Virus record (IMG/VR): IMGVR_UViG_3300031853_000023
Coordinates: 7,254-71,253 of that record
DNA from: a virus
Length of the DNA stretch: 64,000 bases
Reading direction: 5' to 3' (one strand)
Shown here: piece after piece, positions 21,152 to 30,511 of the stretch
Position numbering within the stretch: position 1 is the first letter of the stretch
Layout: every line of letters begins with the position of its first letter
Position numbers and translations under genes: made by a program
The notes under the pieces: model-generated
Told to the model about the DNA's origin: nothing
The model's input: the letters and a program-made list of their open reading frames with translations, nothing else
Database searches by the model: none

Positions 21152-24100
21152 TTTATATTTTAATGCTCTTTGTGCAGCTAAATTAACTAATTCAGTTAAT
21201 GCCTATTCAATTTCTTTTTTACTATTAACATTTGGAAAATTAACATTCATTTCAACAGATTGTTTTAAATCATCTTTGGATTGTATTTTCTCAATCTGAG
21301 CATTTTGTTTTACAATATCTTGAATTTCATTATTTAATTGTGTCATTCTCATTTTTAATTCATTTTGTTGCATTGCTCTTACCATTTGAATCATTTCAAG
21401 CATATTTGCGGTATCCTATTTATTTAATACAAGTTCTTTCTAATGAAGAACTGCTAATTTACCTTGGGTAGAAGACCAATTTCCTGTATATCCACCTGTA
21501 TCAAATCTTACTCCAGTCATTTCAGATAATATAGAAATAAAGTTTTTATCAGCTCCATAGCGTAAAGCAGTACTTTCTGTATTTGCTGCAAGATTTGCAT
21601 TCTAAGCCCAATATTTAAAATCTTTAGCTAAATCAACAATATTTGCTGAAAAAGGCATTCCACGTTTAAATGCTACAACAGTATAATCATATGCATATTT
21701 ATCTTTGAATTTTTCAGTTTTAGTCGTTCCATCATAATAAATTCCTTTTGTATTTTCTTTAATAATTTTAAATTGTCGTTCTAAATATTGTAATTTTTTA
21801 TCTTTATCTATATCTTTATCTCTTCCTAAAGAGGTTTTTATTTCATTTCCTCCTGAATTTACATTTCCTGGAGCAGTATTTCCATAAGTTTTTAAATTAT
21901 TAACTGTTGGAATTGTTTGAGTTTCTGTATCTTTTATATCTTCACTTTTTTTATCCTAATTTATTTTCTTCAATGCTGCTTTGTCAATAGCTGCAATATA
22001 ATCATATACTCTTTCTACTGCACTATCGGTTTGCTCATAAATCTTTTCCCATTTTGTTCTTTGAGTATCTAATGCATCTAAAGTTCCATTCATTGCTTCA
22101 ACAATTTCTCCAGCTTGTTCTTTTAATCTATCATTGCCTTCAATTAATTTATTCTATAGTCCTACGACTGGATCCATAGCCTATTTTATTTTATTCCAAT
22201 CCTATCCTGCGGCAACCTATAATTCAGCTAATCCTTTCTGATAAGTTTGTCTTTCATTATCCATAGCTTGAGTAGCCTCTACAACAATTTGTTTAAAACT
22301 ATCTGGATTGGTACTAAATTTACCAATCATTTCTGCAATACCGCTATTTATTGAAGGAACCATGTCTCCAAGCCATTTTTCTTTTTGAGCATCGCTCATA
22401 TTTTCAAAATCAATTTGTTCTTGATTCATCATATCAGAAAAACTTATCATTGTAGACTACATTAAATTTTGTTTACCCCACTCAGTTTCTTGAGATAAAT
22501 TTAATATATATTCTGAGTATTGTTGATCTAATAATCTTTTTTCTTCATCAATTTGTTTTCTTCGTTCTTCTGTTGCATTAATATATTCTTCATTTAAAGC
22601 TTTTATTTTTTCTTGATATTCTTTTGTAGCATTATATGCTTCTTCTAAACTCTTTTCATAATTCTCTTTATCAAAATTATATAAATCATTTTCAGCTTTT
22701 GCTAAATCATTTTCCGCTTTAGCAATATTATCCTAATCTGCCACATATTGGTAAGAATAATTACCTTGTGAATCACGCTTTAATCTCATTTGAGTTTTGT
22801 TATTTCTGGCCTATTCAAGAGCAATTCGAGCTTTTTCAACCTCCAATACTTTTTGCGCTCTATCTACATCATATTGAGTTAATTTATCTTTTTCTTTTAA
22901 TATTTCAAGTTGTTCATCCATTACCTTCTTTAATTGTTGTTGGCTCTTTAATCCTTTAGTATCATTTAAAGCTTGATTATATAAATATTCAGCATTTTTA
23001 ACCGCAAAAGCAGAATTAATGTCATCTAAGTAAAGATTAGATTGTTTTTTCATTAAATCCCATTGAGTATCTAAGTAATTAAAACCTTTACCGTTAGTTA
23101 ATTTTTGTTCCATCTAATAGGCTATTTGATTAATTACGGTAGTGTATCTATCTTTTAATAATTGAGCAGATTGCTCTTCAAGTTGATTTCTATTTTGAAT
23201 TGCGGTTTGCCATTCAGCTTCCGCCTTTTCAATTACAGCAGTGTCTCCACTTTCTCTTGCTTTTCTTAAATTTTCTTTTGCAATTTGTACTCTATTGTTC
23301 ATTGATTCTATTGATTTTAAACTATTTTCTATCATTTTATCATTATAAACATTTTGTACTGCATAATCATTTTCTCCATATATTAAGCTCATCATATTCT
23401 TATTGTGTTCTAACTGATTATTAACAAAATCATATTGAGATTTTTGTTTTTCAAACATTTCACTAATAATATCATATTGTTCAAGGTAAGTTTGTTTTAT
23501 TGCATCTTCATTTTCTAAAATACCTTTTCTTAACTATATAGCTTTTTTCTGTAACTCTTCTATTGCTTTTTTCTTCTATCCCTAAGTTTTATACAATGTT
23601 CCATTATCTGTCATAGCCTCTGCAATTTGTTTATTAACAATATTTAAAGACTGAGAATCAGCATTTATATCCGCCAATCTTTGAGCATTATCATTTTGTG
23701 CAGATAAAGCTCTGTTAGGATTAAATATATCATCATGCTATAAAACATTTCTCTTATAATCATTCCAAGTTTTTGTTGCCTAAGATAAATCTAAAGTAAC
23801 TTCTAATTTCATATTAAATTTCTTAAGATTTATTTCAATTTGTTTTTCTGATAATTCAGTTAATTGATCTGCAACATCTTCAGCCTAATCTTTTATTTTT
23901 TCATAATTACTTAAATCTGTTTTTAAATCATTTAAATAATCATTAGCTTGACTTTTCTCTTTCCCAATGGAAGATAACTGTGCATCTAAATCTTTATAAA
24001 TTTCATCACCTGTATTGCCACCACTTAATAAATGTTGATTCATTGCCTCTTGAACGCCACGTTCTCTGCTAATAATTGAATTAACATTATTTATTGCACT

Positions 24101-27100
24101 GCCAATAAGATTATTATAATTGCTAATATTTCCATTAGCATCAAAAGATGCTCCCTTAGAAGCTAATCCAGCTTTCTTATTTGCTAAATCTTGTTGTTGT
24201 AATTTTTGTTTGCTTTTTAATAATTTCTATTGTTTTTCATATTCTGCGGATTCAGCATTTAAATTATCAAGTAACTCAGTTCCATACATATCCTGTTGAT
24301 TACGAGTTATACGTTTAATGGTTCTTTCTTGGTCACTTAATAATCTATTTATCTAATGATATATATCTCTTTCATCTTTTAAGAATTTAGTTAATTCTTT
24401 TTGATTTTTAATTCTTTCTCTTTCTAAATCCTTTAATTCTTCTTGAGATTTCTATTGTTCTTTTAATTCATGAGTTGCTGCTTTAGTATAAGATTTAATT
24501 ATTGCCTATCCATCTTCAATAACTACATCTAAATCTACATCAAATGATGCAAAAATTGCTTCAAGTTGCTATTCTGCGTCTACTCCTTTAGCGATTAATG
24601 CCGCTAAAACTTTATCCAATCCCTATTCATTTAATTCTGCTCCAACTGGAATATCTTCTAAATCTAATTTATCAAAATATGCTGATAAATCAGTTTTAAC
24701 TTTATTTAATTCAGCATCATCTAATCCTATATGAATTAAAATATCCTCATAGGCGGCTTGTTGTAACCTTTTATATGCTTTTTCATCTCCCTCAAGAGCT
24801 AATCGCATATCTTCAAGATTTTGTTTAGTGGTGGAAAAAGTATCAGAAAGAGTGCTTTCAGAAATTCCTAAAGTATCTGCCATAGCATCTTTTATCTATG
24901 GTGCTACTGATAATTTATCTGCGGTAGACCCAGATAATTTATCTTGCCAAGTTACATAATTTTTAATTACAGAACTTAATGCAACATTATATCTTTGAAC
25001 TTCTTCTGCTACATCTCTTGCTTTTTTTGCATTAGATTTTAAAGCATCATCTAACAATTCTGATTTTTTTGCAGTTAATTGAAATTGCTATCCTAATTTT
25101 GCTACAAGAGTTTCATCGACATCATCATCTGTTAGAAATATTGATTCATGAATTTGCTATAAAGCTTCTTGCTATTGTTCGTTTGCCTATGTTATTTTAT
25201 CTGCTGCATCTTTATGTTTTTTAGATAATTCATCAAAATAATTATAAATTATTTCATAATTCTATTTTGAAATTTCTCCATTCTCCAAAAATTTTCTATA
25301 AACAGCTACATTTAATTTAACATCATCATCATTAATAGTTGCTAATATATCTAACATCTATTGAGCTTTATCAAAATTAGACTGCTAATTATCTTTCTCA
25401 GATAACCACTATCCTAATGCTTTATATAATTTAGTTATATCATCATTTCCATATGTCTACTGTATCTGCTTTATTTTTTCGTCCCATTCTTCTTCTGATA
25501 TTTTCCCTGATTTTATATATTCATCTTTTAAATTATATTTTCCATCATTTTTATAAATACCACTATTTTTTAACTATTGAATTATTTGCTATGCTTGATT
25601 ATATTTCTGATAATTATATCCTTCAGCAATGCTATCCATCCACACTTGTTCGTTTTCTTTTATATTTTGTTGAATTTTATATTTTTCATCCCAACCTGAA
25701 CGCTGTTGCTATTTTATTAATTTTTTTACTTCATCTTTTTTACTTGCATCTTTTAAAACATAGCCATTATTGCTCATTCTAAAATAAGATTTTATTTCAT
25801 CTGATAAACCATAATCTTCTTCAAAATCCTTAGCAGAAATAGCTTTACTATTAGAAACTTTCTATAAGGCATTAGCCATATTATTATATGTCTACGCTGC
25901 TTTTTTAGCATCTGCTGTATTAAATTCAAGATTTTTAAATTCATATTCATCAATTGTTTTTAAAATATCTTTTATATCATTTAAAGTCGGTAAATATTCA
26001 ATATTAATACTTGAAAGTTTTGCTAATTGCTCTTCATTTAATCCATTAATTAATTTAACAATTTCATCATCAGTTTCTTCTAATCCAAAATAACCCGCTC
26101 CATTATAATGATTAATCCTATTAATATTATCCATTTTATTTCCATACTAAGTTTTTAAATCTTTTGGAATAATAGCTTCAGTTTTACGAGCAACAATATT
26201 ATTTATCTATTCAGCAGACATCCCATCTAACTATCCATTAGCCTGCATCTATTCATAAATTGCTTTTGATGTTTTTTGATATGCTGCCTCATATTCTTCA
26301 AAATTATTAATATTATTAAAATTACTTGCTTGTCGGTTTGCCTATTGCTATGCAATTAAATTTAAACTCTATAAATTTGCAGATTTCCATTCTTCTAACA
26401 TAGGAGACATTTCTTCAAGTAACTCAACCATATTCCGATAATCATTACTTTGTTTTTCTTCCTCTGTTGCGTTTTCTACAACTTGTTGTAAAATTTCAAC
26501 TTGTTTACGAGCTTCCTCTCCATTTTTGGCGTTCCATAATTCAACATAATCTCCTTTGAAATCTCCCAAATTTTGAGCTTTAAGCATATCTCCTAATTCT
26601 TTTGAAAGTCCAGCATTTCCGCCAATTCCACCTGCTTTTATAACCGCATTTCCCTGCGCTTGTGCTCCCCATGCTCCAAGTCCAGTAGTGAAAAAACCTC
26701 CAAAAAAATCATCTTGATTTTTCATCTGACTCGTTAATTTTAAATCTATATTCTAACTTAATTTTTGGGCTTCTTTATCTTTAGATTTAGACATTTTTTC
26801 AAGCTATTTTTCTTTAGCATTTTTTGCTGCTTCCCCTAAATTATTGTAGTCAGAAATTAAATTACGAATTTCAGCAGATTCATCTTGATATTTCTATTGT
26901 AATTCTTGAGTTTTTTCTTTTAATTCTTGTCGAGTAATGATTCCATCTTCATATTGTTTATTTAAAGCTTCTACTTCTGAAATTATATCTTGATTATGTT
27001 TAATCTAATCTTGTTTTTTCTTTTCTTGGTCAATTATTTTTTCATTTGCTTTTATTTGTGCCTATGCAGCTTTTTTTTGTGCTGTTATAACCGCATTTGT

Positions 27101-30100: not shown

Positions 30101-30511
30101 TAATTTATGACTTTGTTTTAATTCAGTATTAAATTTTGTAAGTTCATGAGTTTGAGCTGCCCATACAGCTCTTCCTTCTGCAGTTTTTTGCATTTCTTTT
30201 CTAAATAATTTTACATTTAATCCACTTTGTTCTAATGCTGTATTAAATTTAGTAATATTATAACTATTAGTTTTTGGATTATAAGCTAATCTCATTAATC
30301 GCTAAAATTCAGCAGCATCTTTTTTTAATCTTGTTAAGTCATTAGCTTGTTTCTCTGCTATTGCAGGATTATTTAAGGAAATACCTTGTTGATTTGCATA
30401 ATTAACAACAGATAATTTTTGCAACTATTCTAATTGTTTTTTTAATTTTTTTAATTCCGCATCATTAACCTCAAAGTTAATACCATACGAAATTTTTCTT
30501 TTTTGTTCTGC
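21152..30511 (-). CDS. Tail tape measure protein, TP901-family core; about 3119 codons as a single TAG-recoded ORF
   Basis: Thirteen minus-strand track ORFs (21203 to 30295) all share frame (end = 1 mod 3). The gaps I inspected contain only CTA (TAG). The TMP core motif is present in fragment 29195..29698 (LGVGEDQLAAQLSTIISVTRQAPETVGTALRTVYARI..). Long coiled coils. Stop TAA at plus 21152..21154. Confidence 0.6.

Follow-up and report, generated by a model that had tools for sequence, protein, structure and literature searches.

A 3,122-residue tape-measure protein in a TAG-recoded rumen/gut phage and the probable reading of its TAG codons as glutamate

The 64,000-nucleotide stretch of viral DNA analysed here (positions 7,254 to 71,253 of IMG/VR record IMGVR_UViG_3300031853_000023; hereafter the window) carries a 9.4-kb minus-strand reading frame that is rich in TAG codons and resembles the gene of a tail tape-measure protein (TMP). 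The locus raises two questions, namely whether the frame encodes a single protein and which amino acid is inserted at TAG; the initial annotation had answered them with a single TMP gene translated by genetic code 15, in which TAG specifies glutamine. As judged from sequence, the 9.4-kb frame is a genuine phage tail TMP. It is likely that the window belongs to a large phage of a rumen/gut clade with Firmicutes-type hosts, and that this late gene is translated as one TMP of 3,122 residues with all 69 TAG codons read as glutamate. What would be new here is the glutamate meaning proposed for TAG, the size class of the TMP having already been published for Bacillus phage Tsamsa, the Lactococcus phage 949 group and the uncultured gut phage phAss-1.

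The open frame and the amino acid at TAG

The gene and its ribosome-binding site were delimited as follows.
21146-30514, minus strand: TMP coding sequence (ATG at 30514-30512, 3,122 sense codons, of which 69 are TAG, and the stop codon TAA at 21148-21146)
30523-30529, minus strand: Shine-Dalgarno sequence AAAGGAG, 8 nt 5' of the TMP ATG, as read from the sequence

Between 21152 and 30511 one minus-strand frame contains 69 TAG codons, of which the initial annotation had noted dozens, and neither TAA nor TGA, and the remaining five frames contain 99-390 TAA or TGA codons apiece. Were TAA and TGA as frequent as in those frames (99 or more per 3,122 codons), the probability of so long an open frame by chance would be less than e^-99; read with the standard code, the gene has no TAG-free run longer than ~177 codons. 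The frame had been placed correctly, but its bounds were 3-6 nt short at each end and it comprises 3,122 codons rather than 3,119. Both termini match the homologue consensus, which begins with MAxQ..IxY and ends with LVNLAAQRALK, and homologues of the same length, some without any TAG, align with the protein end to end, upholding the proposal of one gene and one protein.

Among the 43 gene calls in the window, 21 contain in-frame TAG and 22 do not; 33 terminate in TAA, 10 in TGA and none in TAG. The existence of same-length homologues without TAG and the absence of any window gene ending in this codon support TAG as a sense codon. The genes with TAG encode structural proteins, lysis proteins or homing endonucleases, and the core replication genes contain either no TAG or one or two. 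Such a bias between gene classes would allow the TMP to be completed only once suppression is active, and would constitute a translational late switch.

The amino acid specified by TAG was assessed at conserved sites in a tally encompassing 15 ortholog groups and restricted to columns at least 90% conserved. TAG was found 72 times in glutamate columns, once in a glutamine column, once in an isoleucine column and nowhere else. Within the TAG-using genes, the glutamate columns contained 72 TAG and 485 sense codons, and the glutamine columns 1 TAG and 298 sense codons (Fisher p=4e-13). The same tally, applied to sense codons as controls, assigned GAG to glutamate in 50 of 51 cases and CAG to glutamine in 60 of 64, AAG to lysine and GAC to aspartate. 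Two open reading frames (ORFs) of the window belong to families in which TAG is found at functionally constrained positions.
14596-14910, plus strand: HExxH metallopeptidase-like ORF, 104 aa, with TAG as the catalytic-glutamate codon at 14767-14769
15552-16040, plus strand: RuvC-like resolvase ORF with 4 TAG

For the catalytic glutamate of the HExxH motif, the window and one relative (L002) use TAG and 12 other relatives use GAA or GAG, and in the adjacent motif S-[IL]-E-Q-E-E-L-V-A-D TAG occurs at each of the three glutamates in various genomes and never at the glutamine. Likewise, many genomes have TAG in the catalytic motifs of the RuvC-like family, at either glutamate of MEEVRP and at that of NDDEADA, and none has it at the three invariant glutamines. 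At the window's own TAG codons in genes flanking the TMP gene, the aligned columns are glutamate in 8/8, 11/11, 10/11, 8/8 and 15/16 relatives. Because constrained and catalytic sites take TAG as glutamate, the glutamine meaning assumed at first was dropped, and with it the use of code 15 for the window. In the TMP itself, the relatives' codons opposite the 69 TAG specify glutamate in 23%, aspartate in 16% and glutamine in 13% of cases, a profile that is almost identical to that of the GAA/GAG codons of the window and unlike that of its CAA/CAG codons. Glutamate was also the best assignment of TAG from the TMP in 23/23 genomes of the clade in which this gene has 36 or more TAG.

One family of tRNAs with a CUA anticodon was identified on five long contigs that also bear TMPs of the family, each tRNA array of the clade containing a single CUA tRNA type. 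This tRNA has C1-G72, G2.U71, A73 and a 10-nt D-loop (AGYGGYTTAA). The tRNA-Gln of the same genomes has U1-A72, G2-C71, G3-C70, G73 and a short D-loop, and their tRNA-Glu has the long D-loop and A73 in common with the suppressor, which possesses none of U1-A72, G2-C71, G3-C70 and G73, the bacterial glutamine set. In bacteria, glutamine identity and recognition by the amidotransferase require U1-A72, and G1-C72 and an extra D-loop base act as antideterminants (PMC9976931). The acceptor stem and D-loop of the clade tRNA suggest that it would be charged with glutamate and not amidated to glutamine. The ORFs beside the tRNA arrays, judged by inspection only, include no evident gene for an aminoacyl-tRNA synthetase.

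Further RNA elements were noted on related contigs. On the contig of TMP locus L009, the tRNA array with the CUA suppressor also encloses a full-length ROOL RNA (Rfam RF03087, 338 bits; L073 5607-6233, plus strand). A tRNA with the anticodon UUA, which would read TAA, is encoded on the contig of TMP locus L032 (L154 2898-2972, plus strand), and a transfer-messenger RNA with the tag ANEYQMAA on a rumen contig with the same suppressor type (L109 5686-5940, minus strand).

Several results tell against a uniform glutamate reading. Some TAG columns of the TMP are mostly glutamine in relatives (aa 168, 440, 1456, 1982 and 2021), with CAA in 21 of 28 relatives at aa 440, and in comparison with the TMP of the closest relative TAG is exchanged 13 times with CAG/CAA and 8 times with GAA, which would fit partial glutamine decoding too. 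The tRNA search of the 64-kb window found none, so that no suppressor tRNA lies within it. The clade CUA tRNA is without some of the glutamate determinants of Escherichia coli (G1-C72, U2-A71 and the deletion of 47), and when it was compared with 567 tRNAs of the relatives' loci its nearest neighbours gave no clear isotype. A tRNA search of 33 TMP-flanking loci likewise found none, and extension past the end of the window by way of an identical protein reached only an 8.4-kb JGI contig. As regards the exchanges, TAG and CAG are one transition apart and the replacement of glutamate by glutamine is near-neutral in an unconstrained coil; the conflict is therefore compatible with TAG being read as glutamate.

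The same results could also reflect an ambiguous TAG, read as both glutamate and glutamine either through partial transamidation in a host with the indirect glutamine pathway or through two suppressor tRNAs. The TAG columns of the TMP are indeed mixed (plurality glutamate in 19, aspartate in 8 and glutamine in 9), the comparison with the closest relative shows TAG in exchange for CAG as well as for GAA, and phAss-1 has three different CUA tRNAs. However, ambiguity is difficult to reconcile with the near absence of TAG from conserved glutamine columns, with its presence at catalytic glutamate sites and with the single CUA tRNA type of each clade array; it is considered unlikely, while retaining the largest share of what doubt there is.

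Tape-measure identity and tail length

The TMP contains the following features.
29024-30034, minus strand: TP901-family TMP core (aa 161-497, TIGR01760), of which the PF10145 part is at nt 29291-29902
27074-27376, minus strand: two hydrophobic, membrane-span-like segments (aa 1047-1066 and 1114-1147) from a Kyte-Doolittle scan
22415-24397, minus strand: central/distal family-conserved block (~aa 2040-2700) with DERDIYH.IN, NGKGF.YL, KLTQYDVDRA and RLKRDSQGNYSYQYVAD, from invariant or near-invariant alignment columns
21149-21508, minus strand: conserved C-terminal module (aa 3003-3122) with FDTGGYTG.W...GKLA.LH.KELVLN...NFPNVNSKKEIE, from the alignment

The TIGR01760 profile (tape_meas_TP901) matched aa 161-497 with 113.4 bits against a cutoff of 28.8, and PF10145 matched aa 205-408 with 95.1 bits against a cutoff of 33.2 (E=6.5e-27). 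The TIGR01760 span (nt 30034-29024) encloses the region 29195-29698 in which a TP901-type core near the N-terminus had been recognised by eye. The best PHROGs matches were the tape-measure families 4211 and 34405 (E ~1e-57), whose profiles have 2,625 and 2,675 positions. Domains beyond the TP901 core were sought in Pfam, NCBIfam, PHROGs and by PDB sequence search and none was detected; the alternative of fused enzymatic domains is unsupported because no other Pfam, NCBIfam or PDB match was obtained.

The protein contains 0.8% proline, and E, K, Q, N and D are abundant (E, K, Q, R, D and N together account for 40-54% of every 200 residues), a composition that would fit a largely helical polypeptide. 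The hydrophobic segments may have a role in membrane insertion, and a glycine-rich patch is also present. The net charge of the TMP is approximately -125 with TAG as glutamate versus -56 otherwise, a difference of 69 negative charges. A recent tandem duplication was ruled out as the source of its length, the repeat analysis showing only short AT-rich runs.

A protein database search with the TMP returned 2,893 matches at E <=1e-10, and nearly all of the best 120 of these were 2,800-3,350 aa long and contained PF10145. In an alignment of 32 homologues, conservation was seen in residues 1-530, ~1,190-1,260, ~1,860-2,000, ~2,100-2,700 and the last ~120; the polypeptide is therefore conserved as a unit, these five regions extending from the N-terminus to the C-terminus. 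The N- and C-terminal modules are common to the TMPs of 949, PhiL47, Enterococcus phages EF1/VRE9 and Bacillus phages pW2/Thrax2/FADO, and the C-terminal module is found in TMPs of cultured Enterococcus, Bacillus, Lactococcus 949 and Brevibacillus phages.

At the level of DNA loci (IMG/VR and ENA), members of the clade have 19-85 in-frame TAG in the TMP gene, a few have 0-5, and more distant relatives without TAG have 3,104-3,171 codons. By the coordinates of a GenBank match, two loci without TAG correspond to Lactococcus phage 949 (L061; 3,113 codons, genome of 114,768 bp) and PhiL47 (L059; 3,112 codons, genome of 128,546 bp). The closest relative found is a 71.5-kb contig (CAZVSQ010000001.1) with 88-97% nucleotide identity, binned with an uncultured Ruminococcus metagenome-assembled genome, and the related contigs are mostly from rumen samples. 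A megablast search of the TMP gene against 50,697 phage records gave no match, nor did that of a standard-code TMP relative.

The relation between TMP length and tail length was calibrated using four cultured phages, namely 949 (3,113 codons, tail of 500 nm; PMC3888941), PhiL47 (3,112 codons, 480 nm; PMC3888941), Tsamsa (3,123 aa, 440 nm; PMC3903500) and Enterocloster phage PMBT24 (1,508 aa, 238 nm; PMC11035940), which yield 0.14-0.16 nm per residue. Multiplied by 3,122 residues, this gives a predicted tail of ~440-500 nm for the window phage. The earlier estimate of about 460 nm was sound, since tails of 440-500 nm have been measured in cultured relatives whose TMPs are 3,112-3,123 aa long. 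The accompanying remark that this is one of the longest TMP candidates to be expected did not hold, as the size class is common among the 2,893 matches and published for Tsamsa, the 949 group and phAss-1; by itself the TMP is one more ~3,100-residue member of a known family, ordinary for its class. The protein would serve as a ruler within a tail that is long and probably non-contractile, its length of ~440-500 nm being set jointly by three parts of the TMP: the TP901-type N-terminal core, a middle poor in proline and the conserved C-terminal module.

Two points stand against a non-contractile tail of this length. Neither a sheath gene nor a major tail gene could be identified in the 64-kb window, and the related Enterococcus phage EF1 is entered as a myovirus in one paper's table, given there without electron microscopy. 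The latter bears on the possibility that only part of the 3,122 residues serves as the ruler, the remainder being cleaved, folded back or used in another role, for instance as a membrane channel or in contact with the cell wall; the phage would then have a tail far below 440-500 nm in length, or be a myovirus. Besides the EF1 entry, the hydrophobic segments in aa 1047-1147 and the glycine-rich patch, the TMP bands of Tsamsa at 280 and 100 kDa (PMC3903500) and the absence of canonical chaperone genes upstream of the TMP would be in keeping with a partial ruler. It is opposed by the fit of four cultured relatives to 0.14-0.16 nm per residue, three of them with TMPs of ~3,110-3,123 aa, by the conservation of TMP length across the family and by the absence of any detected extra domain. 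A partial ruler is accordingly held to be slightly less probable still than an ambiguous TAG, and a full-length ruler is retained.

Inserted elements were observed in some related TMP genes. In a close relative (L191) the gene is split after ...EELTAV by an insertion of 1,243 nt (L191 2782-4024) bearing a 303-codon ORF, at a site corresponding to window nt 29735 (TMP codon 259/260), where the window copy is uninterrupted. U is the last nucleotide of the 5' exon and G that of the insertion, and an Rfam group I intron match was obtained below threshold (33 bits, E=2.5e-6), with none at the gathering threshold; a comparable insertion, with a DUF723-type ORF, lies at L004 7885-10000. These insertions are probably group I introns with homing endonucleases. 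Four TMP proteins (P0034, P0057, P0070 and P0082) bear intein-type Pfam domains (Hint, Intein_splicing, Hom_end_hint), and the TMP ORFs of L031 (4,123 codons) and L033 (3,867 codons) exceed the others by 700-1,000 codons. Because some TMPs contain inserted elements, ORF length alone overestimates the ruler in those genomes.

Remaining readings of TAG and their consequences

A single TMP in which TAG is glutamine, as in code 15, would require the glutamate signal to have arisen by GAG-to-TAG mutation at sites that tolerate glutamine. Published relatives are annotated with TAG as glutamine, the TAG codons of phAss-1 occupy glutamine columns, and the TMP itself has frequent TAG-CAG changes and some glutamine-dominant TAG columns. 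Against this, the same genes place 72 TAG at catalytic or more than 90% conserved glutamate positions and one at a conserved glutamine, tolerance cannot explain the HExxH glutamate or the acidic RuvC catalytic residues, and the clade suppressor is without the U1-A72, G2-C71, G3-C70 and G73 of the phages' own tRNA-Gln. The explanation of the glutamate-like TMP profile as mere GAG-to-TAG mutation at tolerant sites was rejected on the conserved-site and catalytic-site tests, and glutamine at TAG is regarded as improbable, more so than either of the alternatives above. That TAG is a true stop, with ~70 short peptides or a decayed pseudogene in place of the TMP, has a negligible probability: the GenBank standard-code annotation of the phAss-1 TMP region does consist of at least 11 short hypothetical ORFs, but this reading is already refuted by the 3,122 codons without TAA or TGA, by conservation that continues through the TAG positions, by TAG-free relatives of equal length and by the lack of any window gene ending in TAG.

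With glutamate retained as the meaning of TAG in the window, the balance tips towards an untabulated code shared by a widespread rumen/gut clade of giant siphophages, in which TAG would be glutamate, TAA and TGA stops, and the suppressor a tRNA-Glu-like CUA tRNA that escapes amidation. With phAss-1 apparently reading glutamine, the meaning of TAG would have either switched or been acquired twice among the phages of one family. If TAG is glutamate in the clade, code 15 is therefore the wrong translation here, and table 15 would be wrong for a large clade of TAG-recoded phages. It would miswrite about one fifth of the glutamates of late proteins, catalytic residues included, and in the TMP alone would misassign 69 residues and ~69 charges. 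The clade would represent a natural viral case of a stop codon captured by glutamate, beside relatives that chose glutamine, and would offer a system for testing how the amino acid of a reassigned codon is set, including discrimination by GluRS and GatCAB in hosts with the indirect glutamine pathway. No report of TAG reassigned to glutamate in a DNA phage was found in the literature searched, the coverage of which was incomplete, so that novelty is unproven.

Neighbouring genes and comparison with known systems

The window has a G+C content of ~29%. The TMP is the first gene of a short minus-strand unit, in which it is followed by ORFs of 89, 953 and 478 aa, and this unit diverges from a gene resembling the major vault protein (MVP) shoulder domain, with an identical layout in relatives. 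The canonical order (major tail protein, frameshifted chaperones, TMP, distal tail protein) is not seen here, there being no chaperone pair upstream of the TMP. The features 3' of the TMP gene are listed below.
21124-21142, minus strand: G+C-rich hairpin GGGAGC-TTA-GCTCCC with outer pairs, 4 nt 3' of the TMP stop codon
21084-21112, minus strand: promoter-like site TTGATT-17-TATAAT with TG, 5' of the next ORF, a consensus match only
20777-21046, minus strand: 89-aa ORF with 1 TAG
17899-20760, minus strand: 953-aa ORF with 19 TAG
16444-17880, minus strand: 478-aa ORF with 0 TAG and 41% G+C

The hairpin may be a terminator with a weak T tract; it was not called by the terminator scan. None of the three ORFs had a PHROG match, and from their position only they are presumed to encode distal tail or receptor-binding proteins. 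The 478-aa ORF has an unusually high share of GAG and CAG and a G+C content of 41% versus ~29% for the window, and resembles a host-like module of recent acquisition, possibly one for receptor binding. On the other side of the TMP, the divergent plus-strand gene (30758-33253) encodes a protein of 831 aa without TAG that is a TMP neighbour throughout the clade and whose orthologues in relatives match Pfam MVP_shoulder.

Large unannotated structural genes are located at 683-11503, and the lysis gene encodes an endolysin with GH25 and CHAP domains, relatives also having an r1t-type holin. The plus-strand replication module comprises GyrB, GyrA, an NAD-dependent ligase, DnaB, RecJ-like and RecD-like proteins and the N-terminal part of DNA polymerase III (Pol III) alpha. 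Two GIY-YIG and one LAGLIDADG homing-endonuclease genes (42257-42946, 48698-49597 and 55822-56643, plus strand) are TAG-rich and lie amid replication genes that have none. Beside these homing-endonuclease genes, those for the DnaB-like protein and Pol III alpha (54447-55859 and 61910-63220) look truncated, which suggests introns or split genes.

Amongst cultured phages, 949, PhiL47 and Tsamsa resemble the window in having a TMP with a TP901-type N-terminal core and a conserved C-terminal module, of 3,113, 3,112 and 3,123 aa, respectively. They are large Firmicutes siphoviruses of 115-169 kb with tails of 500, 480 and 440 nm. Unlike the window phage, they use the standard code, with no in-frame TAG, and their TMP identity to the window is ~23%, mostly at both ends.

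The phAss-1 or 'Phassvirus' group consists of uncultured gut phages of ~135 kb with TMPs of 3,149-3,209 aa and predicted Clostridia hosts (Babkin et al. 2023, PMC10607447), and is labelled 'Caudoviricetes code 15 clade' by NCBI. Features common to phAss-1 and the window are TAG-recoded late genes, a replication module with Pol III alpha and a TAG-rich TMP gene in first place in its transcription unit; phAss-1 has no nucleotide similarity to the window and a TMP identity of ~30% in patches, and the window falls outside a Phassvirus-like genus as delimited by at least ~70% genome nucleotide similarity together with synteny. The best assignment for the 110 TAG of the phAss-1 TMP was glutamine, weakly, and its TAG codons outside the TMP lie in columns that are glutamine in 5/5, 6/6 and 4/6 homologues, so that TAG in phAss-1 looks glutamine-like by this comparison of aligned codons, in agreement with the published assignment. 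Two IMG/VR TMP loci (L042 and L043, with 26 and 19 TAG) have a TAG partner profile that is glutamine-like or ambiguous, and may mark the boundary between glutamate-reading and glutamine-reading lineages. The two glutamine-like suppressors of phAss-1 have U1 and G73, and one of them also G2-C71 and G3-C70, features in which the clade suppressor differs. A third CUA tRNA of phAss-1 (L068 43293-43383, minus strand) is 91 nt long with a long variable arm and the D-arm GUCU...GGAC, which we take to resemble the D-arm of E. coli tRNA-Glu. Its nearest bacterial match is a CUA tRNA of Dehalobacter (PMC10607447).

Recoding surveys treat TAG as glutamine (Borges et al., bioRxiv 10.1101/2021.08.26.457843). 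The code 15 phages (crAss-like, Lak, Garnet and Topaz) resemble the window in restricting in-frame TAG to late genes, those for structure and lysis among them, and in avoiding it in early and replication genes, and resemble its clade in encoding a suppressor tRNA in a host that presumably uses the standard code. Of the characteristics of code 15, the window has in-frame TAG in many genes and TAG never as a terminator, but its TAG codons do not align with conserved glutamine, and the suppressor on five contigs of the family is not of the tRNA-Gln type; the difference thus concerns the amino acid, glutamine in those phages and, as proposed here, glutamate in the clade of the window.

In the nuclear code of peritrich ciliates (NCBI table 30), TAA and TAG both specify glutamate. 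This code has in common with the window the reassignment of a stop codon to glutamate and differs in being eukaryotic and nuclear and in including TAA, whereas in the window only TAG would be reassigned, TAA remains the main stop codon (33/43 genes) and the use of TAG follows gene class.

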